Of a stretch of 64,000 nt of DNA, positions 7,987 through 23,127 are shown in pieces. Source of the DNA: Candidatus Binatia bacterium (GTDB taxonomy: Bacteria; Desulfobacterota; Binatia; HRBIN30); NCBI GenBank assembly GCA_023150935.1, contig JAKLJW010000008.1:1721-65720 (forward strand). The letters run 5' to 3'. The notes beneath the pieces are model-generated. The model was not told the origin of the DNA and ran no database searches. It worked only from the letters and a program-made list of their open reading frames with translations. Every line of letters begins with the position of its first letter. The stretch's first letter is position 1. The position numbers were made by a program, and so were the translations under genes.

Positions 7987-8173
7987 GGTCCTGACGCGGC
8001 TTCTCCGTGCGGGCTTTGTCGAGGTTCACCAGACAGGTAGCCACAAGGTGCTTCGCCATCCCGACGGTCGCCAGACGTACGTGGCGATGCACACCGCGAC
8101 GCTTCCCACCGGAACCTTCCGCAAGATTCTGAAGCAGGCAGGTCTGACCGAGGAGGAGTTCCGAGATCTGTAG
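7967..8173 (+). pseudogene. hicA: HicA-family mRNA-interferase toxin ORF lacking a canonical start codon
   Basis: The frame is open only over 7946-8173. It translates ...[63 protein letters not shown], with the HicA GSH and ILKQAGL signatures. There is no ATG/GTG/TTG before GTG 8048, which would delete the GSH motif. ATA at 7967 is one transition away from ATG. Not in the ORF track. Confidence 0.6.
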
Positions 8174-8200: not shown

Positions 8201-8340
8201 GGTTCCCTCTCCCTCAACTTCTGCTTCGAAAATCCGGGAGGGCAAGCGCAATGGCGGGTAGCCATCGGGGTCGGCATCGGTATCGGAATCGGTATCGATT
8301 CGAATGCCTCGATCCCGATAGCGATTCCGACCCCGACCCC
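8201..8340. repeat. Composite repeat, left copy: palindromic hexamer-repeat element (core 8241-8340)
   Basis: The core ggcaagcgcaatggcgggtagccatcggggtcggcatcggtatcggaatcggtatcgat...cgatagcgattccgaccccgacccc is about 90 percent identical to 20032-20125, apart from a 6-nt indel. It consists of tandem ATCGGN hexamers on one arm and their complement on the other. Confidence 0.85.
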
Positions 8341-8403
8341 GCAGAGGGCACCACATTTTCATCCTCTTCAGACGACCGCCAGGTCATGGGCGGCATGTGC
8401 GGC

Positions 8404-8551: not shown

Positions 8552-9502
8552 TCAACAGCCCGTCGCACGATCGAGGAGCGGCACCGCCGCGTTCGCTACC
8601 AGAACCGCCAACGCCGCACCGTCGGGGTAAGGAGTGTAGTAGCGCACCGCCATCGTATAGACCGCCGCGAGCACCGCGAAGATCACCCGCCCCCGGGCCG
8701 AGAACGGCGCGGTCACCGGATCGGTGAGCATGAAGAAGGCCGCCAGCAAAGCGCCGCCGGATAGCAACTGCGCCAACGCATCCCCCGCCAGCCACGGGGC
8801 GTGCCCTGCCATTCTCGCGCCCGGCGGAAGAACCAATGCCAGCAACGCCACCCCGGCCAGATACGTCAACGGCACACGCCAATCGACGGTCCGCATCAGG
8901 ATCAAGCATAACCCGCCGCCGAGCACCGCCAGCGGCGCCGCCTCGGCAAGCGCGCCCGGGTGAAGCCCGAACAACAACTCCCTCACCCCCGGTGCCACCG
9001 CACCGATCTCCTTCGCCAACGGCGTCGCCGCACTCACCCCGTCGACACCCGACCACGCCGGCGCAAGGAGCCGCGCCGGAACGATGCCCATGAGAACCAC
9101 CCGCCCCACCGCCGCCGGGTTGAACACGTTGTTGCCGAGACCGCCGAACAGGTGCTTGCCGACGAGAATCGCCGCCGCCGCACCCACCGGCCCAAGCCAG
9201 ATCGGCCCACTTGCCGGCATCGACAGCGCCGTAACAATCCCCGCAACCACGGCACTGCCGTCGAACGCTCGCCGCGCATCGCACGCCAGGTCGAATACCC
9301 ACGCCACCACCACGGCCAGACCGAGCGGCACGGCCGCCGCCGTTCCGTATCGCCAGATCGCCACCACACAAATCGGCAATAGCGCCAGCACCACTTCGAA
9401 CATCAGCCGCCGCAGAGTCCGCCCGCTATGGAGGAACGGACCCGTCACCTCGCCGGCCGCGGCGGTCGGTTTCATCCATGCCGGCGGTCGCGCATCGGTC
9501 AT
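8552..9502 (-). CDS. rnfD: RnfD/NqrB-family membrane subunit
   Basis: ATG at 9502 overlaps the upstream stop (ATGA). ...GKHLFGGLGNNVFNPAAVGRVVL..., flavinylation-type motif VDGVSAATPLAKE, and FFMLTDPVTAP are typical of the NQR2_RnfD_RnfE family. Confidence 0.85.
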   Translation of the reverse strand: MTDARPPAWMKPTAAAGEVTGPFLHSGRTLRRLMFEVVLALLPICVVAIWRYGTAAAVPLGLAVVVAWVFDLACDARRAFDGSAVVAGIVTALSMPASGPIWLGPVGAAAAILVGKHLFGGLGNNVFNPAAVGRVVLMGIVPARLLAPAWSGVDGVSAATPLAKEIGAVAPGVRELLFGLHPGALAEAAPLAVLGGGLCLILMRTVDWRVPLTYLAGVALLALVLPPGARMAGHAPWLAGDALAQLLSGGALLAAFFMLTDPVTAPFSARGRVIFAVLAAVYTMAVRYYTPYPDGAALAVLVANAAVPLLDRATGC

Positions 9503-9906
9503 CGGAACACGTACGCCAGCGGCTGAAGCGCAAAGTACACGATCGCACACGCCGCCAGACCCATCGGCACGCCCTGTAACCGCACCGCCACTTCGTCACC
9601 GAACTGCAACCGCTCGACAATCGCATCGACCAGAGCCGTCGCCGCCACCCACAGCGCCATGGCTCGCAGCACTTCCCCGACACCTTCGTACTCCGGCACG
9701 GCAAGCACCAGAGCCACGGGCGCAACCCGGGGCGCCGCCAGCACGATCAGGCCCGCCGCCAGCGGGAATCCCAACCCGGCCGGCCACGGCCCAATGGCAC
9801 CCGCCCAGGCAATCGCCGGCGCCAGCACCGCCACCCAGCGACCCGGCCCCGGCCCGATCGACACGGCAACCGCGACGGCCAGGAAGACCAGGTCATACGC
9901 GGTCAC
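9499..9906 (-). CDS. Small polytopic membrane protein, unassigned (occupies an RnfE/A position)
   Basis: GTG at 9906 is preceded by GGGAGA. About 135 aa, Ala/Gly/Val/Leu-rich with about 4 hydrophobic spans. No RnfA/E signature seen. The stop overlaps the rnfD ATG. Confidence 0.5.
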   Translation of the reverse strand: MTAYDLVFLAVAVAVSIGPGPGRWVAVLAPAIAWAGAIGPWPAGLGFPLAAGLIVLAAPRVAPVALVLAVPEYEGVGEVLRAMALWVAATALVDAIVERLQFGDEVAVRLQGVPMGLAACAIVYFALQPLAYVFR

Positions 9907-10315
9907 GAGGTCTCCCGAGCGCAACGATCGCCACCGCGCACCCCAGCAGCAGCACGCCCGCCGTGCGGAATTGCAGCGGCACAAACAGCGCGACTGGCGG
10001 CCCGGCGACGGCCGCTACCAGTAGATTAGGCCACCGTCCCGCCAGTAGACCCGCCGCAACGATCGCCATCGCATTCACCCCCGGAACCACCGCCGCAGAC
10101 GCCCACGCCACGGCAATCCAGCGCAGAGGCGAGGCGTTCGCAACCGCTGCGCCAACGACCAGCGCCGCCGACCAGGCCAGCGCTCCCGACCACGACAGAT
10201 CGGCCACCGCCGGCAACAACGCAGCGACGACCCCGGCGCCTATCCACGCCTCCGACACCGGCACCGCCAACGCGCCAGCCGACTCGCCCGAGTTCACGGA
10301 GTCACCGCCTTCCAT
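9893..10315 (-). CDS. Small polytopic membrane protein, unassigned (occupies an RnfE/A position)
   Basis: ATG at 10315 overlaps the end of the upstream gene by 22 nt. 140 aa, Ala/Gly/Val-rich with about 4 hydrophobic spans. No motif recognised. Coding status rests on operon context and frame continuity. Confidence 0.45.
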   Translation of the reverse strand: MEGGDSVNSGESAGALAVPVSEAWIGAGVVAALLPAVADLSWSGALAWSAALVVGAAVANASPLRWIAVAWASAAVVPGVNAMAIVAAGLLAGRWPNLLVAAVAGPPVALFVPLQFRTAGVLLLGCAVAIVALGRPRDRV

Positions 10316-10776
10316 GCCTGCAGCCGTTCGTTGACGGCATCCACGACGCGCTGAGAGGACACCGTCGCACCGGTCACCGTGTGTACCACGAGAGGCGGCG
10401 TTGCCGCCCGGCCGCGGAACCGCTCGAGGAAGTCGCTCCGAAGCAGCGCGGTCCGATCGACTCCTTCGTGCCCGCGCACGAGCAGGACTTGCTCGATACC
10501 CCCTTCATCGACGACCACCGCGCCGCGCACGGGACCCTGCACACCGACGACATCGAAGAACAGCACCGCCGCCGAGCCGGCCCGGAACGCCGGCGGCCCG
10601 GACACGGCGACCGGCTCGACCGGACCGATCAGCGACTCCGCCAGTCGACGCGCAGCGTCGGGTCGCGGCAACGCCACGTTGAGTCCCAGTGCGCACGCCA
10701 GGAGCACGGCCCCCAGCCGATCCGCTCGCCCCACACCGGCCATGACCGCGGTCCGGACGCGGCTCGCCACAGTCAT
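10294..10776 (-). CDS. FMN_bind-domain protein (RnfG/NqrC-like), membrane-anchored
   Basis: ATG at 10776 overlaps the rnfC stop (ATGA). N-terminal anchor LGAVLLACALGL. C-terminal ...VVHTVTGATVSSQRVVDAVNERL carries the [ST]GAT[IV][ST] covalent-FMN motif of RnfG/NqrC. Confidence 0.75.
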   Translation of the reverse strand: MTVASRVRTAVMAGVGRADRLGAVLLACALGLNVALPRPDAARRLAESLIGPVEPVAVSGPPAFRAGSAAVLFFDVVGVQGPVRGAVVVDEGGIEQVLLVRGHEGVDRTALLRSDFLERFRGRAATPPLVVHTVTGATVSSQRVVDAVNERLQAWKAVTP

Positions 10777-11900
10777 GCACAACCCCCGGCCACGCGCGCG
10801 ACGAAATCGCGCTTCAGCACCCGCATGCGCGCCACCAGACGCCGCTCGGAAGGACAGACGAATTCGCACAGACCGCACTCGACACAATCGAGCACGGCCG
10901 CGGTCGGCCGCCGGATCAACCGGCTAACCGGCAGCTCGAACGGACAAGCCGCAAGGCACCGCCCGCACCTCACGCAACGCTCGTCCCGCCGTCCACTCAC
11001 CTCGTCGTGCGTCAGCGCCAGCACGGCAATCGTGCCGGCGGCGATCGGCGTCTCCGGCGCCGCGGCGTATCCCATCATCGGCCCACCGCAGATAACCGCC
11101 GCGACCCGCTCCATGTCGACCTCACAGCTCGCCAGTACGTGTCCGACCTCGGTGCCGATCGGAACGACGTAGTTGCCCGGCCGGCCGACGGCGCCCCCGT
11201 CCACGGTGATCACACGATCGACCAGGGGACGGCGTTCGTTGACCGCACGGTGGATCGCCCGGATCGTCTGCACGTTCAGCACCACGGCCCCGACCGCAGG
11301 CGGACGACCGCCCCGCGGCACCTCGCGCGCAAGCGTTCGACGAACGAGCATGCGCTCGTCGCCTCCCGGGTAGCCGCGATCGTCATCCACCACCAGCGCG
11401 CGCGCGGCGCCGACCGCCGCAACCGCCAACCCGGCCCCCGCCTCGATCTCCGCGCCATGCTCGGCAAGCACCCGGCTGTCGCAGGTCACGTACGGTTCGC
11501 TTTGCAGCGCGTTGACGACCACCGTATCGAGGCCCGGCCGCGAGGCGACGCGCGAGAGCTTGAGGTAAGTGGGAAACATCGCCCCGCCCATGCCCACCAC
11601 TCCGGCATCGCGCACGGCGTCGACGACATCCGCACCACGGGCAAGCGGCCGCACGACGTCCGGCTCGCCCGCAACCGCGATCTCGCCGCCGACGCCGACC
11701 ACGGTCCCGGATAGCGGCGAATGGACGCGCAACTGCCATGCGGCGCCTTGCGCCGATCGCGCCAGCAGGTCGCCGGCGCGGACGCGGTCGCCCGACTGCA
11801 CGACGCAGTGCAGGTCTCGCACCGGCAGGCGAACCAGCGGCGGCGCCACCAGCGGCGCGATGCGCGAGTCCGCCGTGCGCTTGCGAGCAGGTATTCTCAC
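10773..11900 (-). CDS. rnfC: RnfC-like subunit (NAD(H)/FMN-binding fold plus 2x[4Fe-4S])
   Basis: GTG at 11900 overlaps the cytochrome stop (GTGA). VVGMGGAMFPTYLKL, SEPYVTCD, and two ferredoxin motifs (CVRCGRCLAACP and CVECGLCEFVCP). The track start (12215) is an over-extension into the upstream gene. Confidence 0.85.
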   Translation of the reverse strand: MRIPARKRTADSRIAPLVAPPLVRLPVRDLHCVVQSGDRVRAGDLLARSAQGAAWQLRVHSPLSGTVVGVGGEIAVAGEPDVVRPLARGADVVDAVRDAGVVGMGGAMFPTYLKLSRVASRPGLDTVVVNALQSEPYVTCDSRVLAEHGAEIEAGAGLAVAAVGAARALVVDDDRGYPGGDERMLVRRTLAREVPRGGRPPAVGAVVLNVQTIRAIHRAVNERRPLVDRVITVDGGAVGRPGNYVVPIGTEVGHVLASCEVDMERVAAVICGGPMMGYAAAPETPIAAGTIAVLALTHDEVSGRRDERCVRCGRCLAACPFELPVSRLIRRPTAAVLDCVECGLCEFVCPSERRLVARMRVLKRDFVARVAGGCA

Positions 11901-12469
11901 GGTGCCCACTCCTCGATGCGATGGCACTCGGCACATTGCGCGGCGAAGTATTCCGCGTGGCATTCGAGGCACCCCGCGCCCCGTTCGAGCCCGGCGCTCG
12001 CATGTTCCTGTCGCGCACGCCGGTCCCGTCCCGGATCGCGTACCGATTCGGTATGCCACGGCGGCACCTGCCTGACGTGGCAGTCGCGGCACTGCTCGGT
12101 CCGATGGCAGCCAAGGCACTGAGGGCGATCGGCTACCGCCGCGGCGCCGTGGGTCAGCGTCACGAACGCCGCGTCGTGCGTGGCCTGCACGCGGCCCCGG
12201 TGGCACTCGGCGCAACCCTGCGACGCCTCGCCACCGCGCGGGACGGGATCGCGACGAACTGCATTGACGCCCGCCCAGGCAAACGCCGCGACCAGCACAA
12301 CGCCGGCCAGTCCCGTCGCCGCCACGGGTCCGAGCATGCCCCTACCGGCTCGCCCGAGAACGGCGGCCGAGCCCGGAGCAGGAAGCCTCGCGCGGAGACG
12401 ACGCGCGTTCGTTTCGAAGTCCGTGCCCATGCCCGGGTACCGTGTTCCCCGATCGGAGCGGTTTTTCAA
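11897..12469 (-). CDS. Membrane-anchored multihaem c-type cytochrome (5 x CXXCH)
   Basis: Hydrophobic anchor GPVAATGLAGVVLVAAFAWAG, followed by CAECH, CLGCH, CRDCH, CLECH and CAECH within about 110 aa. The size and anchor resemble the NrfH/NapC class, but with five sites. The start is uncertain (12469, or an internal ATG). Confidence 0.8.
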   Translation of the reverse strand: MKNRSDRGTRYPGMGTDFETNARRLRARLPAPGSAAVLGRAGRGMLGPVAATGLAGVVLVAAFAWAGVNAVRRDPVPRGGEASQGCAECHRGRVQATHDAAFVTLTHGAAAVADRPQCLGCHRTEQCRDCHVRQVPPWHTESVRDPGRDRRARQEHASAGLERGAGCLECHAEYFAAQCAECHRIEEWAP

Positions 12470-12559
12470 CCCGCCCGCAGCCCGAAGCGATCCGCGCCGT
12501 CGCCCCCGCGGGTCCGCCGAGCGACTCCTCGCCGGGCGGCATATCGACGCCCGCGGCGG

Positions 12560-15500
12560 CTAGCGCGGAACGCCGAGATCGATCCAGCGTACAACGGCCG
12601 CCAGCTCCTGCTCCGAAAGAGGATGCGCCGACGGATGCGGCCGGTCCCCTGCGATCGCGCCCGGTGCGTGCAACTCCCGACCCAGCAACTTCTCCGTCAG
12701 AGCGCTCTCGATCGCCAGTCCCTCGCCCGCCGTGTATCGGCGCAACGCCTCGTACGCCTCCGTGCCGGTCAGGTTCACCCCCGCCGCAGGGTCTTTGCCC
12801 GCGTGGCAGCTCGCACAACGCGCCTCGACGATCGGCCGCACATCGGTGTCGAAACTCGCCTCGCGCAACTCCACGGGTCCGTCGCCCGACCAGTTCGCAG
12901 GCATACGGCCCGTACCGCTTTCCTGGCTCCAGTTCGCCAGCGTCCGCGACGCCGAAGTCATCGCGTCGGGCCGGCGCAGGGTATCGGCCGGCCTCCCCGT
13001 CAGTCCGCCGTGACAGCCCCCACAGGTCTGCGCGAAGAGACGCCGCGGAATCGACAGGGTGTGCAGCTCGCCCGGCTGCGCGTACAGCCAGCGGTTCGGC
13101 GAACGCAACGCCATGCCCCGGCCGTTCAGCGACTGGAGGTCGAAAGCGAGCCCCGACGGCACCGCGGCGTAGAACGAACCGTCGGGTTCGAGCGGCAGCT
13201 CCGCGATAGTGACGCGCCTGTCGTCGCGCCATCCCACCAGTCTGACCCCCTGCACCTGATCGACGTCGGGCGTTTCCGTACCGCAGATCGGGCAGCTCGC
13301 CGTCGCGATGTGACGAGGCCCCACCGGCACGATCTGCTCGAAGAACGCATCGAGCAGCGGCAGGTCGGCCACGTGCAAGACGGCCGGCGTTCCTTCCGGA
13401 TAGCCGGCAAAGCCGCGCACGACCGCCGGCGCCCCGAACAGTCTCTCCTGCCGCAGCAACGACTTGCCCACCGGCTCCTTAAGACGGGCAACGACCGGGC
13501 GCGGCCACAGCTCGGAGTCGGGACCCCCGATCGTCGGCTCGCGCCGGAAAGCGCCGGGGGCGAACCCGTCCGGGGTCTGCCACGCCGGCGCCGGTACAAG
13601 TCGAAAGATGTCGAAGTCGGGATCGGCCCCCGCATCGGTCAGATCCAATGGCCCCTGCGCCCATGCAACAACGACGCTCCCGTCGGGCATCGGGAAAGGA
13701 TCGCGGTACGCACCGCCGGCCGACACACCGCGGGCCGCAGCCGTTGCATCGAGCGCCAACCACCCCGGCACGAAGCGCGGCAGCGACGTCACCGGCGTGC
13801 CGGTCGCATACGGATGATCGAGATTGTCGGTGGGGTTGTCGGCCTCGATCGTCGGGCCGAACTGGTGATCGGAAAGAATCAGACTGCCGCCCCACCACGA
13901 ATCGGCGTCACGGCCGATGCGGACCTCGAGGCCGTTCGGCAACTCGCGGTCGTCGGCGAAGATCGGCACTCCCGAACGGTTGCCGTTGTGGGTGTGGAAG
14001 TTCGAGCCGTCGACGTGGGTGCGGAACAACGCGCCGTTGAAGAACGGCCGGCCGTCCTGTTCTCCGGTACGCAGCGACGTGAACACGATCTCGCCCGACG
14101 ATCTCATCGTCGGACGCCTGACCTGACTCGGCGAGTAGGTCATACGCCGCAGCGTCGACCGCAACGTCTCCCGTTCCTGCCCCGGCGCCGCCAGTCGCAT
14201 ACGATAAGCGTCGAAACACGGCGCCAAGCGCGGCGTGCCTTCGATCACGTAGTGCGTCGTCGAGTCGATCGCGCGCGGCAGGGGCGCGTCGAGCAGCAGC
14301 TTCCCGGTTTCGTGACGCCGGACACGCCGCAGCGCTCCGGCGTTGCTGCCGCGAACGAAACGCACGGTACGACCGTCGTAGGCGCCCGCTCGCTCGGTGA
14401 GCTGGTCGTCGAGCAGCGCCGTCGAGCTGCCACCCTCGGCCTCGCCGAGGCGGCCGGCCGGACTCGACCGGCAAGCGCCCGCGTCGAGATTGGAGACGAA
14501 CACCAGCGCCGCGCGCGACAGGTCGTCGCCGTCACGGTCGTCCGGGTCCGGCACGTACAACGGATCGAGGAAGTGTACCGCCGGATCGGTCGAGAACGTC
14601 AATTGCCGCGCGGCACCGGTCGCGAGTTCGATCTCCCACAAGTCGAACGGTTCCTCCGCCGACCGGCGCATCGCAAAGACCACGCGGCGGGCGTCATAGC
14701 TCACCGCGGGCGCGCGCACGTCGGCCGCGGTGCCCTTGTGCAGGCCGGCCGTGAGGTTGACCTCCTCGCCGTCGCTGCGCCGCCAGTAGAGATCGCCCCC
14801 CGGCAGAAAGGTCAGGTCCTCGAAGAACCGTTCGGGGGAGTGACGTGGCCGGCGCACGAACACGAAGCCCCGCACCTCGCCGAGGGCGGCCGCCGTCCGC
14901 CGGCGGGCATCCTCGGCTTCGAGCCGCAGCCATTCGACCAGTAACCGGTAATCGGGATCGTCCTTGCGGAAAAAGTCGTTCCCGCCCTTGTGCACGATGC
15001 CGCCCTGCTCGACCGGGATGTTCTTGAGCAGTTGCTTCGACTGCTCGACGTCGCCGTCGAGCGCGACGAGCCGGGTGACCTTGCCGAGCATCGCCTGCCG
15101 GTTCGCACGGTGCATCGCGCCGGAAAACCGCGCCGGCAGGGCCGGCATACCGGCATCCAGCTTGAGGTCGTTGAAGGCCAGCTCGCCGTGGCAGTTGGCG
15201 CCCAGGCAGGTCTTGCGCACGAGGATCGGCGCGACCCGGCCGGCGAAGAACTCCTCGGTGGCACTCGGCGGGGACGGTGCGGACTGACGGGTGCGCGCCT
15301 CGACCTCGAGCCAGGCAACCAGTTCCGCGTAATCCGGGTCGTCGGGCGAGGCGAACACCTCCGGATGCCGCCAGTACCCGGAGTAGGCGGTCGCCAGCGG
15401 GGCGCGGGCAAGGAGACTTGCGGCCGGCGTTCCCGGATCGATCGGGCGCAGCGTGCGCGTCTGAGTCTCCCGGATCCGGGTACACCGATCGTAAGCGGCA

Positions 15501-15808
15501 CGCCGCTGGTCGGCCGAACCGATCCGACCTCGGTCGTCGGTGGGCCATTGCAGCAGCGCCGGCGCAGCGGCCTCCTCCTCCATCGCCCGGTAGCGCGCTT
15601 CGCGGACACCGTGACAGCCGCCGCAGCGCCGATCGAGGACGGGCACGACGCGCTCGCCGAACCGCGCCTCGGAATCCTCTTCAGCGACCGGCGGGGCATA
15701 GACCCACGGCAACCAGACCGAGCCTCCGGCGGCCGCGATCACAGCGCCGATTCCCAGTAAGGCGAGGGCCACGCCGCGCCGGCGTCTATGCGGTCGGGGC
15801 TCGATCAT
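12560..15808 (-). CDS. Large (about 1083 aa) exported haem-motif / PD40-like beta-propeller protein
   Basis: ATG at 15808 overlaps the apbE stop (ATGA). N-terminal anchor GVALALLGIGAVIAAAG. CGGCHG, CGGCHGG and CASCHAG lie in F..V.P[IV]L...C..CH contexts typical of Planctomycete-type cytochrome c domains. There is one CLGANCH (CX4CH). The segment DLYWRRSDGEEVNLT...VVFAMRR...DLWEIELATG looks PD40/TolB-like. Track residues 1-229 overlap apbE and were rejected. Confidence 0.75.
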   Translation of the reverse strand: MIEPRPHRRRRGVALALLGIGAVIAAAGGSVWLPWVYAPPVAEEDSEARFGERVVPVLDRRCGGCHGVREARYRAMEEEAAAPALLQWPTDDRGRIGSADQRRAAYDRCTRIRETQTRTLRPIDPGTPAASLLARAPLATAYSGYWRHPEVFASPDDPDYAELVAWLEVEARTRQSAPSPPSATEEFFAGRVAPILVRKTCLGANCHGELAFNDLKLDAGMPALPARFSGAMHRANRQAMLGKVTRLVALDGDVEQSKQLLKNIPVEQGGIVHKGGNDFFRKDDPDYRLLVEWLRLEAEDARRRTAAALGEVRGFVFVRRPRHSPERFFEDLTFLPGGDLYWRRSDGEEVNLTAGLHKGTAADVRAPAVSYDARRVVFAMRRSAEEPFDLWEIELATGAARQLTFSTDPAVHFLDPLYVPDPDDRDGDDLSRAALVFVSNLDAGACRSSPAGRLGEAEGGSSTALLDDQLTERAGAYDGRTVRFVRGSNAGALRRVRRHETGKLLLDAPLPRAIDSTTHYVIEGTPRLAPCFDAYRMRLAAPGQERETLRSTLRRMTYSPSQVRRPTMRSSGEIVFTSLRTGEQDGRPFFNGALFRTHVDGSNFHTHNGNRSGVPIFADDRELPNGLEVRIGRDADSWWGGSLILSDHQFGPTIEADNPTDNLDHPYATGTPVTSLPRFVPGWLALDATAAARGVSAGGAYRDPFPMPDGSVVVAWAQGPLDLTDAGADPDFDIFRLVPAPAWQTPDGFAPGAFRREPTIGGPDSELWPRPVVARLKEPVGKSLLRQERLFGAPAVVRGFAGYPEGTPAVLHVADLPLLDAFFEQIVPVGPRHIATASCPICGTETPDVDQVQGVRLVGWRDDRRVTIAELPLEPDGSFYAAVPSGLAFDLQSLNGRGMALRSPNRWLYAQPGELHTLSIPRRLFAQTCGGCHGGLTGRPADTLRRPDAMTSASRTLANWSQESGTGRMPANWSGDGPVELREASFDTDVRPIVEARCASCHAGKDPAAGVNLTGTEAYEALRRYTAGEGLAIESALTEKLLGRELHAPGAIAGDRPHPSAHPLSEQELAAVVRWIDLGVPR

Positions 15809-16851
15809 CGCAGCCATTGCAAGCGGTCGCCTTCGAGACGCAGGCCCCGCGACAGATGTACTCGGCCATCGCGATCGACGGCGAGAGCCTCGACGTCCGG
15901 CAGTGCGTCGGCCAGCGCAATCCCCCGTTCCCAGCCGAGCACGGCGATCGCGGTAGCCAGCGCGTCGGCGGCGGTGCCGTTGCCGGCGATCGCGGTCGCA
16001 CCGGTCACTTCGCGTGCCGGCCAGCCGGTGCGCAGGTCGACGATATGCTGATAGCGCGTGCCATCGACGGCGAAGAACCGTTCGTAGTCGCCGGAAGTGG
16101 CGATCGCGCAGTCGGTGGCCGGGAGCGTTGCGAGCAGGGTGTCGCGGCGCGGATCGCGCACCCCGACGATCCACGGGGCACCGTCCCGAGAGCCGCCGAC
16201 GACGACGTCGCCACCCGCATCGACGATGAAATTCGGGAAGCCGATCTGCCGCAGCCGCGCGGCCATGCGGTCGGCGGCGAAGCCCTTGCCGATGGCGCCG
16301 AAGCCGAGCTTCATGCCCGCACGGGCAAGGCCGATGCGGGCGCCTTCCTGCCGAATGCCCCGGTAGCCGACCAGTGCCTGGCGTGCGGCGATTTCCGCGC
16401 CGGCCGGCAGCCTTCGGGTCAGCCGCGCCCGCTCCCACAACTCGAAGAGCGGTCCCCCGGTGACGTCGAAGGCGCCGTCGCTGCGGCGCGCCCATTCAAT
16501 CGATCGCTCTACCAGCTCCTGCAGTTCGGGTCCGACGGCCACCGTCGCGGCCCCGGCCGCGGCATTGATCGCCGACGTCTCGCTGCCCGGCTGCCACTCG
16601 CTGATGCGCGCCTCGATCGCGGCGGCCAGGTCGAGCGCCTCGTTGGCGGCCGCGGCCGCGCGCGGCTGAGCGCCCGCTTCCGCCCACACCGACACCTCCA
16701 CCAGCGTACCCATCATGGGCCGCGCCACCCGGACGATCGCTCCGGCCGAACCGGGCCGGCCGCGCCGCTCGGCAACGCCGAGCGCGACCAGCACGGCAAC
16801 GCCCACCGCGACCGCCGCTATTCGATAGATAGGACGTACCGTGTCAGGCAT
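15805..16851 (-). CDS. apbE: FAD:protein FMN transferase (ApbE family)
   Basis: ATG at 16851. MMGTLVEV..., SEWQPGSETSAINAAAG, FDVTGGPLFELW, KLGFGAIGKGFAADRMA, IATSGDYERFF and HIVDLRTGWP form the ApbE pattern. Confidence 0.9.
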   Translation of the reverse strand: MPDTVRPIYRIAAVAVGVAVLVALGVAERRGRPGSAGAIVRVARPMMGTLVEVSVWAEAGAQPRAAAAANEALDLAAAIEARISEWQPGSETSAINAAAGAATVAVGPELQELVERSIEWARRSDGAFDVTGGPLFELWERARLTRRLPAGAEIAARQALVGYRGIRQEGARIGLARAGMKLGFGAIGKGFAADRMAARLRQIGFPNFIVDAGGDVVVGGSRDGAPWIVGVRDPRRDTLLATLPATDCAIATSGDYERFFAVDGTRYQHIVDLRTGWPAREVTGATAIAGNGTAADALATAIAVLGWERGIALADALPDVEALAVDRDGRVHLSRGLRLEGDRLQWLR

Positions 16852-19800
16852 TCGATATCCCAGACGGTCAGGTGCGACGTGACGCCGTGTGTGTCCGGCA
16901 ACCCGTCCCGCTCGTTGAGTCCCCGCTCGCGTTGGTCGGGCCGGTCGGCGTCGGGCCGCGGAGCCGGCAGGCGGCCCAGCGCGGGATGGTCGGGAGTGCA
17001 GAGCACCTCGCGCAAGCTGACCGCGTGTCCGTGGTGCAGAAACCGCGGCGGCCGCGCCCACAGGCCGCGCAGCGACGGCGCCACGAAGAACCCTTCGCGC
17101 TCCTCGACGCGCCCGCCATCGTCCGGATCCCAGGGGCGAACGTAGCCGTTGATCGCGTCGATCCGGTCAGCGCTGACGAGGGTGTGCGCGTCGTCTCGGG
17201 CGGCCGGTGTGACGAGCGGCGGGAAGGCCCGGTTCTGATTGTACGCGTGTTGTTTGTCGGTAAAGGCCGGCGCCGGATGACAGCCGGCGCAGCCGACCCG
17301 CGGGCTTTCGAACAGCGCCCGTCCGTGCCGCACCATCGGGTCGCCGGGATCGACCGGGTTGGGCAGCAGGCGCGGCTCGCCGCGCTGGTAGTCGCCGATG
17401 AACTTCTGCAGCTCGCGGAACGAGTAGGCGCGGCCGAGGTATCTTGCCGAGATCCGTGCAAAGTGCCGGTCGCGCCGCTTGAGCAGGTCGGCCAGCGTCA
17501 CGCCTTCCCGGTTCCACGCCCGGCCGGTGGCAACCACGATCGTGTCGGCCGAGGTCGCGTAACGGGCGGCGTCCTCGGCGGTGACACGGATGCCGTCGAA
17601 ATCGCCCGCCGGCGTGTGCCCCTGGAAGTCGACCAGCGGGTTGTGCTCCATCATCATGGTCAAGGGCTCGTCGATCGACAGTGTGCCTTCGACGAAGAAG
17701 GGGACCTTCTGAACCAGCGCCCGGAGGTCGGGAACCTCACGGCTGCCTCCCGTACGCTCGTCGCCGTGGCGGCTCTGGCCCATAACCTGGCTGACGCTCC
17801 ACTGCTTCCCGTCGGAGGTATCGCGGTAATGGCAATGAACGCAGCTCTGATCCTGGTCGACCGAGAACACGCTGGTCTGCACGAAGAACTCGCCGCGTTC
17901 GAAGTCAGTGGCCGGGAACGCTTGGGGTAGCCGCGATACCGAGCGGGTGACGGTTGTACCGTCGCGCATATCGACGAACGTGACGCTCTCGTCGAGGTGG
18001 TTGGCGACCACCAGCGTCGACCCGGCGACCGCCAGACCCGTAGGTTTGAGGCCGGTGGCGAAGACGCGACCGGGGCGCAGTCGCCCGGACGGCGGCGCAT
18101 CGACCGAAACGTGCCATTCCTGCACTTCGAAGGTGCCCGACATGGAGACGAACAGGCGGTCGCCGTCCGCGGCGATCTGTTCCGGGAAGGCGCCGGCGAC
18201 GCGCAGAAGATCCGGCGGCAGATCGCCTTTGACGTCGCCGGGAAGGGCTTCGAACGAATCGGACGTGTAGCGAGTGAAGGTCTCCGAAGCCGTGTACACA
18301 TCGACGCGCTCAGCGCCCGGATCGAGGATGACGATGTCGTTGCCGATGTCGCGGAACTTCTCCTGCGCGGTGCCGTCGACGGCATCGAACCGACCGAGCG
18401 GCCGTTGCCTGTCGAGCGGCAGCGGCCGGGCCGTGGCGGGATCGCGCCACAGCGTGAAATCGGCGTTCGGCTCGCGGGAATCGAGGCTCTCGCGACCGGC
18501 GTCGTGGTCGCCAGGGTGTCCCGAACCGACGTTGAGCGTGGCGAACACGAGTCGGCCTCGCGCCCAGGCGATGTCGTTGACCGGCGAACGGGTGAAGATG
18601 CGCCGCGTCTCGCGCCGCGAGCCGAGATCGACCACCGACACGTCGAGCGACCCGGTGTTGGCGACGTACAGCGTGCTGCCGTCCGGCGCGATGGCCATGT
18701 CGCGCGGTTTGTCGCCGACGGAGATGCCAGGCCCCTCGGTGCCGTCGGCGATCCAACGGCGCAGCGCTGCGAAGTCGGGATCGCGGTCCGGTTCCGGAAA
18801 CACGACGCCGCCGGGGTGATGCTTGCCGTCGATGCTGTCGGCACGGCCACCGTGACGCGTTGCGGTCACCGCAAGGAGAAGCGGACTGAGTTCCGGCGCT
18901 CCGGCGCGCGCGTGGACGACCGTGCTCCGAAAGATCTGCCGGTCGTCGCGACCGGCATAGAACCCGCCGGCCGCATAGAGGTGGCAGCTCGCCGTGCCGC
19001 AGCGGGCGCGCAGGACGCCTTTGATGCCGTCGGGACCGCCCGTTTGCGGGGGCGGGGCGATTTCCTCGAGCGGGGCGAAGCCGCAGCGCACGCACCGGGT
19101 CGCCGCCGGGTTGGCATCGCGCCATCCACACATGGGACACTTGCGCCACCCGGTCGGGTGGCGCCGTGGCGTACCGAAAAACCGGCGGCGGTCGAAACCC
19201 AGCTCGCGCAGCCGACCGGAGAGCCGGTCGTCGTCCCACGTCAGGTCGACCACGAGCACCTGGTTCGTCCAGAAGTTCGAGACGTAGACCGTGCGCCCAT
19301 CCGGCGCGAAGATCAGATCCTCGGCGTAGAACGGCACGGGGATGCTGGAGACGACGCGGTCGGTGGCGACGTCGATCACGGATAGGTAGTTGGAGAATCG
19401 ATTGGTGACGACGACCCAGCGACCCGTGGGGTGCAGAGCGATTCCGTACGGGTGGGACCCGACGGCGACGCGGCCGATCTCGCGCCGGCGGGGCACGTCG
19501 AAGACAACGACCTCCGACCCCGGAGCGATCTCCTTGCCGGCGAGCGTCACGTAGGCCCTGGCACCGTCGAGGGTGGCCGCGACGCGGTAAGGCCGGGTGC
19601 GAAGCGGCTGGCGGGGCAGCGACGGATCGGGGTTGGCGACGGGCAACAGGTTCCGGGGCGCCTCCGGGGCCGAGCTATCGTCGGGCGTGCCTGCAAGGTC
19701 AACCGGCGGTGCCACCGGCACCGCCCGCCCGGCATCGTGGTTGCCGGCAGAATTACGGTACAGCGAAACCCCGATGCCGGTAACGAGCGCGGCGCACGCC

Positions 19801-19892
19801 AGGACGGCGAGCCAGAGATCTCCCCTGTCTTGGCGGTCGATCGGCCGCCGTCGAGGGCGAGGGATTCGACTTGATCCCGGAAGCTCGAACAT
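16818..19892 (-). CDS. Large (about 1024 aa) anchored YVTN-type beta-propeller protein with a C-terminal di-haem peroxidase/MauG-like region
   Basis: ATG at 19892. Anchor LWLAVLACAALVTGIGV. YVTN-like blades (GSHPYGIALHPTGRWVVVTNRFSNYLSVIDVATDRVV..., YVSNFWTNQVLVVD, LYVANTGSLDVSVVD). Zinc-ribbon-like CPMCGW...CVRCGF. One CGTASCH (CX4CH). CVHCHYRD and CAGCHPAPAFTD sit in a CCP/MauG-like tail. Confidence 0.75.
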   Translation of the reverse strand: MFELPGSSRIPRPRRRPIDRQDRGDLWLAVLACAALVTGIGVSLYRNSAGNHDAGRAVPVAPPVDLAGTPDDSSAPEAPRNLLPVANPDPSLPRQPLRTRPYRVAATLDGARAYVTLAGKEIAPGSEVVVFDVPRRREIGRVAVGSHPYGIALHPTGRWVVVTNRFSNYLSVIDVATDRVVSSIPVPFYAEDLIFAPDGRTVYVSNFWTNQVLVVDLTWDDDRLSGRLRELGFDRRRFFGTPRRHPTGWRKCPMCGWRDANPAATRCVRCGFAPLEEIAPPPQTGGPDGIKGVLRARCGTASCHLYAAGGFYAGRDDRQIFRSTVVHARAGAPELSPLLLAVTATRHGGRADSIDGKHHPGGVVFPEPDRDPDFAALRRWIADGTEGPGISVGDKPRDMAIAPDGSTLYVANTGSLDVSVVDLGSRRETRRIFTRSPVNDIAWARGRLVFATLNVGSGHPGDHDAGRESLDSREPNADFTLWRDPATARPLPLDRQRPLGRFDAVDGTAQEKFRDIGNDIVILDPGAERVDVYTASETFTRYTSDSFEALPGDVKGDLPPDLLRVAGAFPEQIAADGDRLFVSMSGTFEVQEWHVSVDAPPSGRLRPGRVFATGLKPTGLAVAGSTLVVANHLDESVTFVDMRDGTTVTRSVSRLPQAFPATDFERGEFFVQTSVFSVDQDQSCVHCHYRDTSDGKQWSVSQVMGQSRHGDERTGGSREVPDLRALVQKVPFFVEGTLSIDEPLTMMMEHNPLVDFQGHTPAGDFDGIRVTAEDAARYATSADTIVVATGRAWNREGVTLADLLKRRDRHFARISARYLGRAYSFRELQKFIGDYQRGEPRLLPNPVDPGDPMVRHGRALFESPRVGCAGCHPAPAFTDKQHAYNQNRAFPPLVTPAARDDAHTLVSADRIDAINGYVRPWDPDDGGRVEEREGFFVAPSLRGLWARPPRFLHHGHAVSLREVLCTPDHPALGRLPAPRPDADRPDQRERGLNERDGLPDTHGVTSHLTVWDIECLTRYVLSIE

Positions 19893-19987
19893 CCCCCAAC
19901 CGCCGTAGTCCCGTGAGGAGTTGAAGACAGCCAGCATATGCGACGCGAACGAAGGGGCGGTCAAGTACCTCATCCCGCTGCGCAGTC

Positions 19988-20125
19988 AGGTCCCTCTCCT
20001 TCGAACATTGGGATGGGTGGGACCGGGGATGGGCAAGTGCAATGGCGGGCAGCCATCGGGGTCGGCATCGGCATCGGTATCGATCCGATTCCCTCGATCC
20101 CGATAGCGGTTCCGACCCCGACCCC
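19988..20125. repeat. Composite repeat, right copy: palindromic hexamer-repeat element (core 20032-20125)
   Basis: Homologous to 8201-8340 and in the same orientation. The core is ggcaagtgcaatggcgggcagccatcggggtcggcatcggcatcggtatcgat...cgatagcggttccgaccccgacccc. Confidence 0.85.
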
Positions 20126-20130
20126 ACGGC

Positions 20131-20190
20131 AACAGCACCCCACCGCGGAGTCAGGTCCCTCTCCCAGCGGGAGAGGTCAGGTGAGGGGAT
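20131..20190. repeat. 60-bp inverted repeat, left arm, flanking the DUF559 fragment
   Basis: aacagcaccccaccgcggagtcaggtccctctcccagcgggagaggtcaggtgaggggat. The reverse complement of 20453-20512 matches at 56/60 positions. Contains an internal 8-bp hairpin cctctccc/gggagagg. Confidence 0.9.
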
Positions 20191-20207
20191 CCACATCCTC
20201 CCGCAGT

Positions 20208-20444
20208 TCAGTCCCGTGTCACGATCGCCACGCCCCGCACCGCTTCCCCAATTCTCGCCAGCACACCCTCGATGTTTTCAATCACGTCGTTGTTCCAGAA
20301 CCGCACAACCCGGCACCCCGAGAGTTTCAGAAACCGGGCACGCTCTTGGTCGTATTCCCGTTGCTCCAAGTGCTGACCGCCATCTACTTCCACCACCAGC
20401 CTCGATTCCACGCAACAGAAGTCGACGTGACGCTCGTGCCTCAT
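20208..20444 (-). pseudogene. DUF559 (Vsr-like endonuclease domain) fragment, N-terminally truncated
   Basis: 78 aa: ...VDFCCVESRLVVEVDGGQHLEQREYDQERARFLKLSGCRVVRFWNNDVIENIEGVL. This is the C-terminal two-thirds of a DUF559 domain. An in-frame TAA lies just upstream of the ATG. Confidence 0.75.
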
Positions 20445-20452
20445 TCGATCTT

Positions 20453-20512
20453 ATCCCCTCACCTGTCCTCTCCCGCCGGGAGAGGAACCTGACTCCGCGG
20501 CGGGGTGCTGTT
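20453..20512. repeat. 60-bp inverted repeat, right arm
   Basis: atcccctcacctgtcctctcccgccgggagaggaacctgactccgcggcggggtgctgtt. Pairs with 20131-20190. Confidence 0.9.
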
Positions 20513-20533
20513 ACCGTGCTGTGGCGGGCATCG

Positions 20534-20566
20534 AACGCGCGCGGAGCGCGCGTTTCACCTGGGCGG
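20534..20566. repeat. GC hairpin repeat, right copy
   Basis: aacgcgcgcggagcgcgcgtt + tcacctgggcgg. Homologous to 8404-8435. Lies 9 bp beyond the stop of the minus-strand gene that ends at 20575. Confidence 0.7.
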
Positions 20567-20574
20567 GCCGGTGG

Positions 20575-23127
20575 TTACTGCGGTACCGCCCGCCAACTCC
20601 GGTGCGCCGGCACGCCGATCTCCGGCGCATGGCCGAGCACCGCGTACGGATATGCGAAGGCCAGGGCATCGCGCTGCACGTCGAGCGGCGGGGCGTCGCC
20701 CAGGTACGGCGCGATCAGCAACCGGAAATGCTGCCGCTGTCCGTTGTAGGAAGGCGCATGCGGATCGGTAGTGTCCGCCAGCTTCTCCGCCAGGAACTTG
20801 CCGAGACCCGTGACCCCCGTGGCGTAAGAGAGTTGCCGGCCGTAGTAGCTGCCGAAGGGATTGAGAAAGATGAGCGTCTCGTTGCCGTCGCGGCGCGTGC
20901 GCATCGGGCAGAACGCGAAACACGCCATCGCATCGGCCGTCTGCGCAACCAGCAACCCGCGTTCGCCGTCGCTGACGGCGACCCAGCCGTGGGTGACGTG
21001 GTTGTTGAACGCGTCGAGTTCGCGGTTAGCCGAGAAGGCGCCGTACTCGGGCTCGTAGCTGCTGACGTGCCCGAAGTAATTGTGCTTCCACACCCGCAGC
21101 GGGCGTCCCGGTCGACCGCGCAACGCCGGCACGATCTCGCACGGCATCACCTCGTGCCAGTGGCCGTCGTAAACCTGTTCGAGGCGCCGTGCCCGCTCGC
21201 GCTTGAAGTTGCGCGAGTGCGTGTGCGGATAGCGGACGCGCGTATCCACGAACAGGTACGGCAGGCCGGTCGCCAACAGGTACTCGCGCTCGAACTCCAC
21301 GTCGGCGGCAGGCTCGCTGTAGATGGTCGCTTTCCCGCGCACACCCACGATCCCGATATTGCCATCGCCGAGTGCGGCTACGGTCGTGGGTTCCCATTGC
21401 GTCACCCGGGTTACGGCCCCGCGGTAGGTCACGGCGCTGCGCATGACTTCTCCCGCGCTCCATTGCTGTCCGAGCGCGGTCAGGCCCACTGGCCGGCCCG
21501 CGGCGTCGAAGGCGAGGGTCAGATGCTCGTTAAGCAGCACACCGTCGCGCGCGATGACGGTCCCCGACGACGGCGCGATCGCGGGTGCTCCCAGTTCGAG
21601 GCGGTACGGGCGCCGCTCGCCCGCCTCCAGCGTCGCCACGAAGAGCAGTTCGCCGTCGGCGTTGCCGGGAGCGCCGGAAAGGCCACGCACCGCCGCGGTC
21701 TGCCTCCGGCCGTCGCCGGTGACGACCGCGGCGCCAGCCGGCGGCGCGGCAGCGAGGCGCAGCGGCAGTCGCACCAGCGCCCGCGACGGGGCGGCGGCGT
21801 AGGTTACGGCGTCGGTGGAGACGCCGCGCACGTAGTCCACGAGCGAGAACGAAAAGCCCTGCGGATCTTCGGCCGTGGCGCCGGCGGCCAGATCGAAGGC
21901 CCGGGCGGCCTCGGCGACCGCTTCGTCGACCAGGGCGGTGACCGTGTGCAGCCGGGTCTTGTTGACGATCGGGGAGGCCAGACCGAAGTGAGTGGTCGAA
22001 AGCGCGAGGAGGCGCGCCTGCGCCGCGGCCTCGAGCCGCGCCGCGATGACGTCGCGGTCGCCGCCGGAGAGGGAATCGTCGCACAGGCGGCGCGCCTGCA
22101 GGTCGAGGATGCGGGCCCGTTCGATGCCCGTCCAGATGTGATGGTTCGACCATTTCTCCGCCCAGCTCGAGTAACCGTCGAAACTGCCGTCGGCCGTGTC
22201 CTGCGCAATGACGATATCGGCCAGAGGGGGGTGGGTTTCCAGGTACGCGCCGGGGGTCGTGAAGGCGACGAAGTCGAGCCCGCGGGCAATATCGATCAAA
22301 CCGTCGAGGCCGCGAAGCTCCGGCATGAGACGATCGATCAGCGGCACGGAGACCCCGGCCCAGAAAGGGTCGTCGGCGTCGGCATCGAGCAGGAGCAGGA
22401 AGTCGATCGGCTCCGCCATGGCGAGTTGATAGCGCCGCAAGCGCCGCAGCCAGCGCGCGAACGAGACGTGCTCGGCGAGGTCGCCGTGGTTGTGCGCCGG
22501 CAGGAGGACCATGGAGCGCTCGATACCCGAGTAGGTCAGGCGCAGCGGATTGCAGCGCCGTTCGAGGGGCAACGGCGGCACGAAGTTGCTGAAGGCGTTG
22601 AACGGCACGCCGCTGTAATAGAGGCTGATGCAGTCGATGCCGTGGCGCGGGTACAGAGCCAGGTGCAGCGGCGTGTACATCATCTCCTGCGGGCGTACGA
22701 TCGGCGCGAAAGTGCCGAAGAGGTCGCGTACGCCCGACCCGGCTGCGTTGGTCAGGGCGCGAGAGATAGCGGCGTCGAATTCGCTGGCCGTGTGCGCGGC
22801 AATCAAACCGTTGTTGTACGACATCGCCTCGACTTCGTCCTGCCCGGCGGCGACGCGGCGCCGGATAGCGGCGATCAGGTCGGGGCAGTGCGCGGGCATG
22901 ATACGTTCGAGCGAGAAGTAGTTCTCGATATCCCAGGTGCCGCGCACCGGCACGCCGCGCGCATTCCAGGTGTCGAGGACCTCGACGATCCGGCGGATGA
23001 TGCGGATGTCCTTGCCGAAGCCGTCCTCGTCGACCGTGTCGCCGCGGTAGGAATGGTAGAAGTTCGCGTGAAAGCGAAACGCGAGATGGATCCGCGGCGC
23101 AGAGGCGGCTGCCGGCGTGCCTGCCAT
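20575..23127 (-). CDS. Large cytoplasmic protein, possibly a GH57/GH38-clan glycoside hydrolase or polysaccharide-processing enzyme
   Basis: ATG at 23127 is preceded by AAGGAG at 7-nt spacing. N-terminus RIHLAFRFHANFYHSYRGD...WDIENYFSLE...RPQEMMYTPLHLALY resembles the (beta/alpha)7 N-domain of GH57-like enzymes. The family assignment is weak. Confidence 0.4.
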   Translation of the reverse strand: MAGTPAAASAPRIHLAFRFHANFYHSYRGDTVDEDGFGKDIRIIRRIVEVLDTWNARGVPVRGTWDIENYFSLERIMPAHCPDLIAAIRRRVAAGQDEVEAMSYNNGLIAAHTASEFDAAISRALTNAAGSGVRDLFGTFAPIVRPQEMMYTPLHLALYPRHGIDCISLYYSGVPFNAFSNFVPPLPLERRCNPLRLTYSGIERSMVLLPAHNHGDLAEHVSFARWLRRLRRYQLAMAEPIDFLLLLDADADDPFWAGVSVPLIDRLMPELRGLDGLIDIARGLDFVAFTTPGAYLETHPPLADIVIAQDTADGSFDGYSSWAEKWSNHHIWTGIERARILDLQARRLCDDSLSGGDRDVIAARLEAAAQARLLALSTTHFGLASPIVNKTRLHTVTALVDEAVAEAARAFDLAAGATAEDPQGFSFSLVDYVRGVSTDAVTYAAAPSRALVRLPLRLAAAPPAGAAVVTGDGRRQTAAVRGLSGAPGNADGELLFVATLEAGERRPYRLELGAPAIAPSSGTVIARDGVLLNEHLTLAFDAAGRPVGLTALGQQWSAGEVMRSAVTYRGAVTRVTQWEPTTVAALGDGNIGIVGVRGKATIYSEPAADVEFEREYLLATGLPYLFVDTRVRYPHTHSRNFKRERARRLEQVYDGHWHEVMPCEIVPALRGRPGRPLRVWKHNYFGHVSSYEPEYGAFSANRELDAFNNHVTHGWVAVSDGERGLLVAQTADAMACFAFCPMRTRRDGNETLIFLNPFGSYYGRQLSYATGVTGLGKFLAEKLADTTDPHAPSYNGQRQHFRLLIAPYLGDAPPLDVQRDALAFAYPYAVLGHAPEIGVPAHRSWRAVPQ

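Follow-up and report, generated by a model that had tools for sequence, protein, structure and literature searches.

The stretch of DNA analysed here, called the window in what follows, comprises 64,000 nucleotides of contig JAKLJW010000008.1 (assembly GCA_023150935.1, positions 1,721 to 65,720 of the forward strand) from a Candidatus Binatia bacterium. It has a GC content of 68% and contains, on its minus strand, nine co-directional genes that overlap at seven of their eight junctions. In the order in which they are read, these are big1, the ApbE gene, big2, a pentahaem cytochrome gene, rnfC, the gene for an RnfG-like FMN-binding protein (FMN_bind), the genes for two small membrane proteins (TM1 and TM2) and rnfD. 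From the proposed starts, all nine reading frames are open and in frame, and we infer that they form one polycistronic operon, read as a single transcript. It is highly probable that these overlaps represent true junctions between the genes of the operon, kept by selection. Judged by gene pairs studied elsewhere, the four-nucleotide junctions very probably couple the translation of neighbouring genes, and the overlaps of 34, 22 and 14 nucleotides probably do not couple by reinitiation. The operon is more interesting than its junctions, as it ties hydrazine-synthase-like haem proteins to an NADH-side fragment of the Rnf complex.

The junctions were read by a script on the reverse complement of the window, and each of the seven overlaps listed in a first-pass annotation, made from the sequence alone, is present on the minus strand. 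The longest is the first, in which the ApbE gene starts with ATG at 16851 inside big1, which stops with TAG at 16820–16818 (34 nucleotides, 16851–16818). The ApbE gene and big2 share an ATGA (15808–15805), with an alternative big2 start at ATG 15817 that would extend the overlap to 13 nucleotides. The cytochrome gene and rnfC share a GTGA (11900–11897), with an AGGAG eight nucleotides upstream, and the Pfam match to RnfC_N starts at the same residue. The stop of rnfC and the start of FMN_bind form an ATGA (10776–10773). FMN_bind and TM1 overlap by 22 nucleotides (10315–10294, from ATG 10315 to TGA 10294), an alternative TM1 start at GTG 10297 giving a GTGA and a four-nucleotide overlap, while TM1 and TM2 overlap by 14 nucleotides (9906–9893), the TM2 start being GTG 9906, not ATG, and the stop TGA 9893. 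The last overlap, between TM2 and rnfD, is again an ATGA (9502–9499) and has no Shine-Dalgarno-like (SD-like) sequence upstream. With the starts chosen in the first-pass annotation, four junctions belong to the four-nucleotide class (15808, 11900, 10776 and 9502), and a fifth is possible at 10297.

Adenine occupies only 6.0% of the third codon positions in the operon genes, yet an in-frame ATGA is found at three of the six TGA stops (binomial p = 0.004). Elsewhere in the window, about four of 17 co-directional pairs overlap, against seven of the eight operon junctions (Fisher p = 0.007), in a crude comparison that uses an approximate gene map based on GC content at third codon positions and 25 co-directional adjacent pairs. 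The ATGA excess, the density of overlaps and the recurrence of the same geometry in eight other lineages together argue that the junction pattern is more than chance.

These lineages come from a metagenome scan with big2 and from the genomic context of big2 homologues, which together provided eight independent syntenic operons (loci L081, L082/83, L084, L085, L089, L090, L091 and L093). Their big2 proteins have sequence identities of 50–76% and the GC content ranges from 50 to 71%. The NCBI source labels place L081 in Vicinamibacterales, L089 in Planctomycetota and L090 in Gammaproteobacteria metagenome-assembled genomes (MAGs); the operon is conserved as a whole across MAGs that bear the labels Binatia, Vicinamibacterales, Planctomycetota and Gammaproteobacteria, at least four phyla by label. 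A contig scan with RnfC found canonical RnfC only (28–38% identity) and no orthologous operons; the canonical loci obtained in this way served only as comparators for rnf junctions.

At the junction between big1 and the next gene, a start codon is located at exactly -34 in all nine lineages (ATG in seven, GTG in two). The ATG at this position is built from the glutamate and cysteine codons GAA-TGY of the conserved big1 carboxy-terminus (..W[DE][IVL]EC..SIE, followed by the stop codon). GAA is the minority glutamate codon in the genes of the seven lineages with this ATG (25–49%). Multiplied over the genes, these fractions come to about 3.5e-4, and the pattern is suggestive of the ATG being under selection. 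The cytochrome and rnfC genes likewise overlap by four nucleotides in all nine lineages, and rnfC and FMN_bind do so in seven, with -10 in L090 and a spacer of 12 nucleotides in L081. For big2, the -4 start is the sole candidate in L082, L084 and L090, and L089 has a GTG at -4; an ATG at -13, which arises from an ApbE tryptophan codon, is present in the window, in L093 (with which the window forms a Binatia pair) and in L085. The junction of FMN_bind with TM1 is variable, with an ATGA at -4 in L084, L089, L090 and L093. At the TM1/TM2 junction, the start column is conserved ([MV]T.YD..FL), the overlap is four nucleotides in the six other relatives that have TM1, and the 14-nucleotide form, common to the window and L093, is the derived one. 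Between TM2 and rnfD, -4 is the chosen start in seven of nine lineages; in L085 the spacer is 0 nucleotides, and in L091 the start is called at -10, with a GTG available at -4. Read along the operon, the overlaps in L089 form an unbroken run of 34, 4, 4, 4, 4, 4, 4 and 4 nucleotides, and those in L090 a run of 34, 4, 4, 4, 10, 4, 4 and 4. The nine lineages together have 46 four-base junctions, of which 33 are ATGA and 13 GTGA.

The one operon junction without overlap in the window is that of big2 with the cytochrome gene, where 222 non-coding nucleotides are found (12338–12559, minus strand). The first-pass annotation had described a chain of overlapping stop and start codons across the operon; this holds for seven of the eight junctions, but in this genome the chain is interrupted by the spacer. 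At the same place, a four-nucleotide overlap is present in seven relatives and a 13-nucleotide spacer containing GGAG in L093, the closest of them. The 222-nucleotide spacer was considered as coding or unusually structured sequence and rejected as either, the GC content at codon positions 1 to 3 being flat and the fold z-score -0.24; it is a lineage-specific insertion.

Two of the relatives differ in gene content. The operon of L081 (9923–13225) has neither ApbE nor TM1, and its big2 begins at the -34 ATG inside big1, with a signal anchor like that of ApbE. This arrangement suggests that a deletion placed big2 behind the start of ApbE. In L091 (7654–11988), ApbE and big2 are fused into a protein of 1444 amino acids.

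SD-like cores, defined as GGAG, GAGG, AGGA or GGGGG located 4–17 nucleotides upstream of the start, are present at 27 of the 46 four-base junctions (59%), against a background of 12% (p = 7e-14). Their spread is uneven: they precede rnfC in seven of nine cases and TM2 in five of six, and rnfD in none of seven. The TM2/rnfD junction, kept at -4 without an SD-like core, has the pattern expected for initiation that would rely on reinitiation.

Among co-directional gene pairs, no other spacing is nearly as common as an overlap of four nucleotides, and the native pairs tested were tightly or strictly coupled (Huber et al. 2019, PMC6728339; Huber et al. 2023, PMC10666635); in the summary that the later paper gives of Huber 2019, 14 of 14 native overlapping pairs in experiments were strictly coupled (PMC10666635). 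Efficient termination-reinitiation has a window of roughly -8 to +6 nucleotides (PMC6728339; PMC10666635). Among the subunits of heteromeric complexes, pairs with short overlaps show a 4.5- to 8-fold enrichment, and it has been proposed that stoichiometry is selected for (PMC10666635). At an ATGA or GTGA of the operon, the ribosome that terminates on the upstream gene would already sit on the start codon of the next, and its reinitiation there, most likely by termination-reinitiation coupling, would be assisted at most junctions by an SD-like core inside the end of the upstream gene. At the TM2/rnfD junction, which has no such core, reinitiation would act alone. The output of consecutive genes would thereby be linked, and the messenger RNA and the nascent membrane and periplasmic proteins would be held in one place, an arrangement that would suit a membrane redox complex during its assembly.

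The longer overlaps are doubtful couplers because coupling is reported to fall steeply with overlap length. Its efficiency depends on context and falls faster with overlap than with spacing, and in one systematic study there was none at -25 (review, PMC12548453). Long overlaps such as that of the coat and lysis genes of phage MS2 (-50 nucleotides) act via RNA unfolding (PMC12548453). If the overlaps of 34, 22 and 14 nucleotides in the operon are coupled, it is likelier that the upstream ribosome would open the messenger RNA and that fresh initiation would follow. As in MS2, the start, here that of ApbE, is placed deep within the gene before it (34 nucleotides), where a passing ribosome could expose it rather than occlude it; in contrast to MS2, the surroundings of the -34 start yielded no inhibitory structure that is convincing and conserved. 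In the window (16849–16887, minus strand) and at the equivalent positions of the eight relatives, the -34 start (AUGCC or GUGYC) could pair with an upstream GGCGU or GGCAC, and the two lineages with a GTG start have the compensating C. The upstream arm of this helix is also protein-coding, and the helix is not convincing: a conserved RNA structure hiding the -34 ATG was rejected, as only a 5-bp helix of -5.7 kcal/mol was obtained, which shows little covariation (term of -0.46).

Several points weigh against reading the junctions as a coupled chain. What is established here is the geometry, the conservation and the positions of the starts; the coupling is carried over from published work on other gene pairs. 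Three of the seven overlapping junctions may not couple by reinitiation, given their length (PMC12548453), and the 222-nucleotide spacer interrupts the chain. With SD-like cores at many of the junctions, independent initiation is also possible. Two starts have two candidates each, that of big2 at -4 (15808) or -13 (15817) and that of TM1 at -22 (10315) or, as GTGA, at -4 (10297), and every gene of this 68%-GC window has further in-frame start codons nearby.

An unlikely explanation is that the overlaps are real and neutral, a by-product of genome compaction and turnover of stop codons, each gene having its own Shine-Dalgarno sequence and translation being uncoupled. SD-like cores do precede 59% of the four-nucleotide junctions, junction lengths do drift among the lineages (4, 10, 11, 13, 14, 22 or 35 nucleotides, or short spacers) and the window copy of one junction contains the long spacer. 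However, the -4 geometry persists across phyla and over GC contents from 50 to 71%, and the rnfD start, chosen at -4 in seven of nine lineages with an SD-like core in none, is better accounted for by reinitiation; the 14 of 14 coupled native pairs that PMC10666635 attributes to Huber 2019 also argue against neutrality.

The first-pass annotation went further, holding that the density of overlaps implies fixed stoichiometric co-translation. In its strong form, with the whole chain enforcing 1:1 co-translation of the subunits of a single complex, this is quite improbable, even though short overlaps are enriched among subunits of heteromeric complexes (4.5- to 8-fold, PMC10666635), the overlap run of L089 is unbroken and ApbE is fused to big2 in L091. 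Against it, ApbE is a flavin transferase with a catalytic role, the L081 operon does without ApbE and TM1, the spacer precedes the cytochrome gene in this genome, and overlaps of 14–34 nucleotides give little coupling or none when measured with reporters, the efficiency depending on context (PMC12548453). Coupling at the four-nucleotide junctions is plausible; a fixed stoichiometry is not implied by the sequence. It is an over-reading, since ApbE is a maturation enzyme rather than a subunit, the spacer breaks the chain, L081 does without ApbE and TM1 and L091 has the ApbE–big2 fusion, and it is not derivable from coupling whose efficiency depends on context and from long overlaps that are doubtful couplers.

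The proposed starts lie downstream of those of the longest open reading frames (ORFs). The NCBI annotation (MCK6554336-44) and the Logan gene calls agree on the same starts for ApbE, RnfC, FMN_bind, TM1, TM2 and RnfD, so that independent calls match six of the seven starts chosen in the first pass. For big2, both use ATG 15817 instead of ATG 15808, and for the cytochrome gene both use ATG 12337. No conserved protein sequence was found in orthologues upstream of the proposed starts, and in the relatives the frame is closed by a stop codon shortly before each equivalent start. When the longest ORFs are used as tblastn queries, there is "conservation" upstream of the starts, but it merely reflects the preceding gene, which is encoded there in a different frame. 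The long ORFs (RnfC with 480, big2 with 1311 and ApbE with 418 amino acids) were rejected, their upstream parts being the 3' ends of the genes before them, read out of frame. The TM2 family, which is very small, with only 29 representative clusters in 1.84 billion proteins, aligns for most members with residue 1–2 at residue 1–2 of the query; these homologues came from an exhaustive HMMER search, a word-index search with TM2 having recovered the query alone. Homologues of big2 are mostly 1070–1107 amino acids long, against 1311 for the longest ORF. The preference for shortened starts is borne out by the frames of the relatives, the TM2 amino-termini and the lengths of the big2 homologues, although not by the overlaps themselves, which had been offered as independent support: the starts had been picked to make the overlaps, and the argument is circular.

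The operon in L090, with a GC content of 50%, bears most directly on whether high GC content creates the overlaps. There, the downstream frames open only 9–42 nucleotides upstream of the called starts, usually with a single start codon, located at the overlap, and these short upstream stretches decisively disfavour a high-GC artefact. Together with the start positions in the relatives and the SD-like cores, they indicate that the shortened starts hold. That the chain results from misannotation of a stop-poor 68%-GC genome with long frames, the true starts lying downstream and the genes not overlapping, is very improbable and appears largely refuted by the comparative data: each window gene does have another GTG or ATG in frame no more than a few dozen nucleotides away, several proposed starts have no SD-like motif and the gene callers differ from the first pass over big2, but the equivalent positions are start codons in nine lineages, in L090 mostly the only one at hand, ATGA makes up 33 of the 46 junctions with third-position adenine at 6%, a downstream ApbE start would cut off a conserved arginine and half of the signal anchor, and the amino-termini of the TM2 family coincide.

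The comparative data settle the starts of seven genes and flag alternatives for big2 and TM1, which is of value for annotation. For big2, 15808 seems slightly favoured over the 15817 of the callers, since -4 is the sole candidate in L082, L084 and L090. GTG 10297 may be the real TM1 start, as the -4 position is conserved in relatives. The big1 start also differs between the calls, being ATG 19973 in Logan and GTG 19715 in NCBI (965 amino acids). The NCBI start (19715–19973 region, minus strand) drops a hydrophobic amino-terminal anchor (..DRGDLWLAVLACAALVTGIGVSLY..) that is conserved at the amino-termini of the relatives, and one of the upstream ATG codons (19892, 19937 or 19973) is more likely.

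As a phenomenon the overlaps are ordinary, a new instance of the well-known textbook architecture of translational coupling: the device is also found, at lower density, in canonical rnf operons. The geometry of the four or five -4 junctions of the window, and of the 46 across the nine lineages, is identical to that of the coupled pairs described by Huber et al. (2019, PMC6728339; 2023, PMC10666635), and here too the genes are co-directional, predicted to encode parts of a membrane complex and, at many junctions, provided with SD-like cores embedded in the upstream gene. To these the operon adds the 34-nucleotide overlap, which is in the same phase as -4 (phase 2 of Huber) and present in nine of nine lineages. 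Long phase-2 overlaps are depleted and typically uncoupled (Huber 2023, PMC10666635). Four-base overlaps being the commonest co-directional arrangement in prokaryotes, with an established role in coupling, their occurrence matters little; only the density of the overlaps, their conservation across phyla and the conserved long overlap in the -4 phase are notable. The last of these offers a clear-cut case, from nature, of an arrangement that is usually regarded as transient.

Canonical rnf operons (rnfCDGEAB or rnfABCDGE) also use stop/start overlaps, and RnfC, RnfD, an RnfG-like protein and ApbE are present in the operon described here. Of 296 rnf–rnf junctions in 80 canonical loci or genomes, 22% offer a four-nucleotide and 11% a one-nucleotide overlapping start, so that the density of overlaps is higher here, at seven of eight junctions. 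The order is different as well (C-G-TM1-TM2-D), RnfB and RnfE are absent at the locus, RnfA is represented only by a carboxy-terminal remnant without cluster cysteines, and c-type cytochromes are included in the operon.

The two largest genes encode haem proteins that resemble hydrazine synthase (HZS). The product of big2 (12560..15808, minus strand) is a membrane-anchored homologue of HZS-alpha, with extra amino-terminal haem sites, three CxxCH motifs and one CxxxxCH motif, and carries the HZS-alpha middle domain of Pfam and NCBIfam. A profile of 26 big2 homologues matches HZS-alpha (PDB 5c2v_A) with E = 4.4e-36 over four collinear stretches; the single big2 sequence reaches only 39.5 bits, the NCBIfam cut-off being 800. 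The product of big1 (16818..19973, minus strand) is a membrane-anchored YVTN beta-propeller with a carboxy-terminal di-haem domain, containing two CxxCH motifs and one CxxxxCH motif. Its profile matches 5c2v_B with 1e-19, limited to the generic YVTN repeats, and 5c2v_C with 1e-6, around the haem motif only. The propeller and di-haem architecture of big1 resembles that of fused HZS beta-gamma, though the evidence from its sequence is weak and partly generic.

As in hydrazine synthase, the alpha-like and beta-gamma-like genes are co-located, and the big2 family profile covers the propeller, middle and haem domains of HZS-alpha. The two proteins differ from it in scoring far below the NCBIfam equivalog cut-offs and in having the extra amino-terminal haem sites and the membrane anchors. 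Distant HZS homologues have been reported outside anammox bacteria (PMC12758564, PMC10732223), and key residues are not conserved in other distant homologues (PMC12758564). Neither of these papers mentions a link of HZS homologues to ApbE and an Rnf-like module. Such pairs also occur without an Rnf module: L091 has a second alpha-like/beta-gamma-like pair downstream of the operon (16795–21988), and another (L092, 9188–15921), in an Elusimicrobiota MAG, adjoins two FGE-sulfatase genes. In both pairs the genes overlap by four nucleotides.

The genes between and behind big1 and big2, all on the minus strand, encode ApbE, the cytochrome, homologues of part of the Rnf complex and the two small membrane proteins. 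The ApbE protein (15805..16851, 348 amino acids, identical in sequence to MCK6554343) is an FAD:protein FMN transferase (Pfam ApbE, E = 2.9e-77) whose amino-terminus is a signal anchor. The cytochrome (11897..12337, 146 amino acids) is a membrane-anchored, pentahaem c-type protein with five CxxCH motifs, which are conserved. The RnfC homologue (10773..11900, 375 amino acids) contains the NADH/FMN-binding domain and two [4Fe-4S] motifs and reaches 265 bits with TIGR01945 (cut-off 246). The RnfG-like FMN-binding protein (10294..10776, 160 amino acids) has an amino-terminal anchor, the flavinylation motif TGAT at residue 135 and an FMN_bind Pfam score of 27.3 versus 22. The RnfD homologue (8552..9502, 316 amino acids) matches Pfam PF03116 with E = 8e-80 and TIGR01946 with 212.5 bits (cut-off 207). 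RnfC and RnfD thus pass the NCBIfam cut-offs. The [ST]GA[ST] motif of the FMN-binding protein is conserved in seven of eight lineages, and so are the two Fe-S motifs of RnfC.

The small membrane protein TM2 (9499..9906, 135 amino acids) is homologous in its carboxy-terminal third to the carboxy-terminus of RnfA. With a hidden Markov model (HMM) of RnfA built from the canonical loci, the TM2 orthologues are the top four six-frame matches, and hhalign aligns the TM2 family with RnfA at 87% probability (E = 4e-6) over the carboxy-terminal 52 residues, with a shared R.RL....vP...RG.P motif. RnfA and RnfE are six-helix paralogues whose conserved cysteines hold the intramembrane Fe-S cluster; TM2 has no conserved cysteine and looks like a degenerate RnfA remnant. 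TM1 (9893..10315, 140 amino acids) is an orphan without a detectable family and sits where RnfE would be. It was considered as an RnfE remnant and rejected, giving no HMM or hhalign signal to RnfE or RnfA, and the idea that TM1 and TM2 are paralogues was also rejected for lack of a signal. Neither the window nor L081, L082, L084 and L085 gave further HMM matches to RnfA or RnfE, and in these same five loci the HMM of RnfB, the polyferredoxin subunit on the ferredoxin side of Rnf, matched only the ferredoxin domain of RnfC. At the locus level, the gene lists of L089–L091 contain neither RnfB nor RnfE.

The NAD(H)-side half of Rnf represented by RnfC, RnfD and RnfG would, on this gene content, exchange electrons with the periplasmic cytochromes and the HZS-like enzyme. 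We tentatively propose, with slightly less than even confidence, that the nine genes constitute an undescribed "half-Rnf" respiratory module, consisting of RnfC, RnfD, RnfG and the RnfA remnant, without RnfB or RnfE and matured by its own ApbE. It would connect cytoplasmic NAD(H) by electron transfer with a periplasmic pentahaem cytochrome serving an HZS-like alpha/beta-gamma haem enzyme, would be horizontally mobile across at least four phyla, and would have the chain of overlaps, including that of 34 nucleotides, as part of its co-expression. In the searchable literature, no description of a linkage between HZS-like proteins and a partial Rnf was found. The linkage gives a testable hypothesis for the partners of the enigmatic HZS homologues of non-anammox bacteria.

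Partial "NQR/RNF-like" systems associated with flavinylation have been described (Meheust et al. 2021, PMC8238504). The concept is shared, namely a partial Rnf or Nqr, ApbE and an extracytosolic FMN-binding protein, with one-way electron flow across the membrane. In those systems, RnfD/NqrB is fused to an NAD-binding domain of the NqrF type (PF00175), whereas here RnfD stands alone (316 amino acids, PF03116 only) and the NADH module is the separate RnfC.

Scans for promoters and terminators between positions 8000 and 21000 gave no signal above shuffled expectation, and none between the operon genes. Just downstream of rnfD (window 8263–8341) there are short tandem repeats of hexamers and 12-mers, with CATCGG and CCGACC units, and a number of Logan contigs with the operon, independent of one another, terminate within a few hundred bases of this region.

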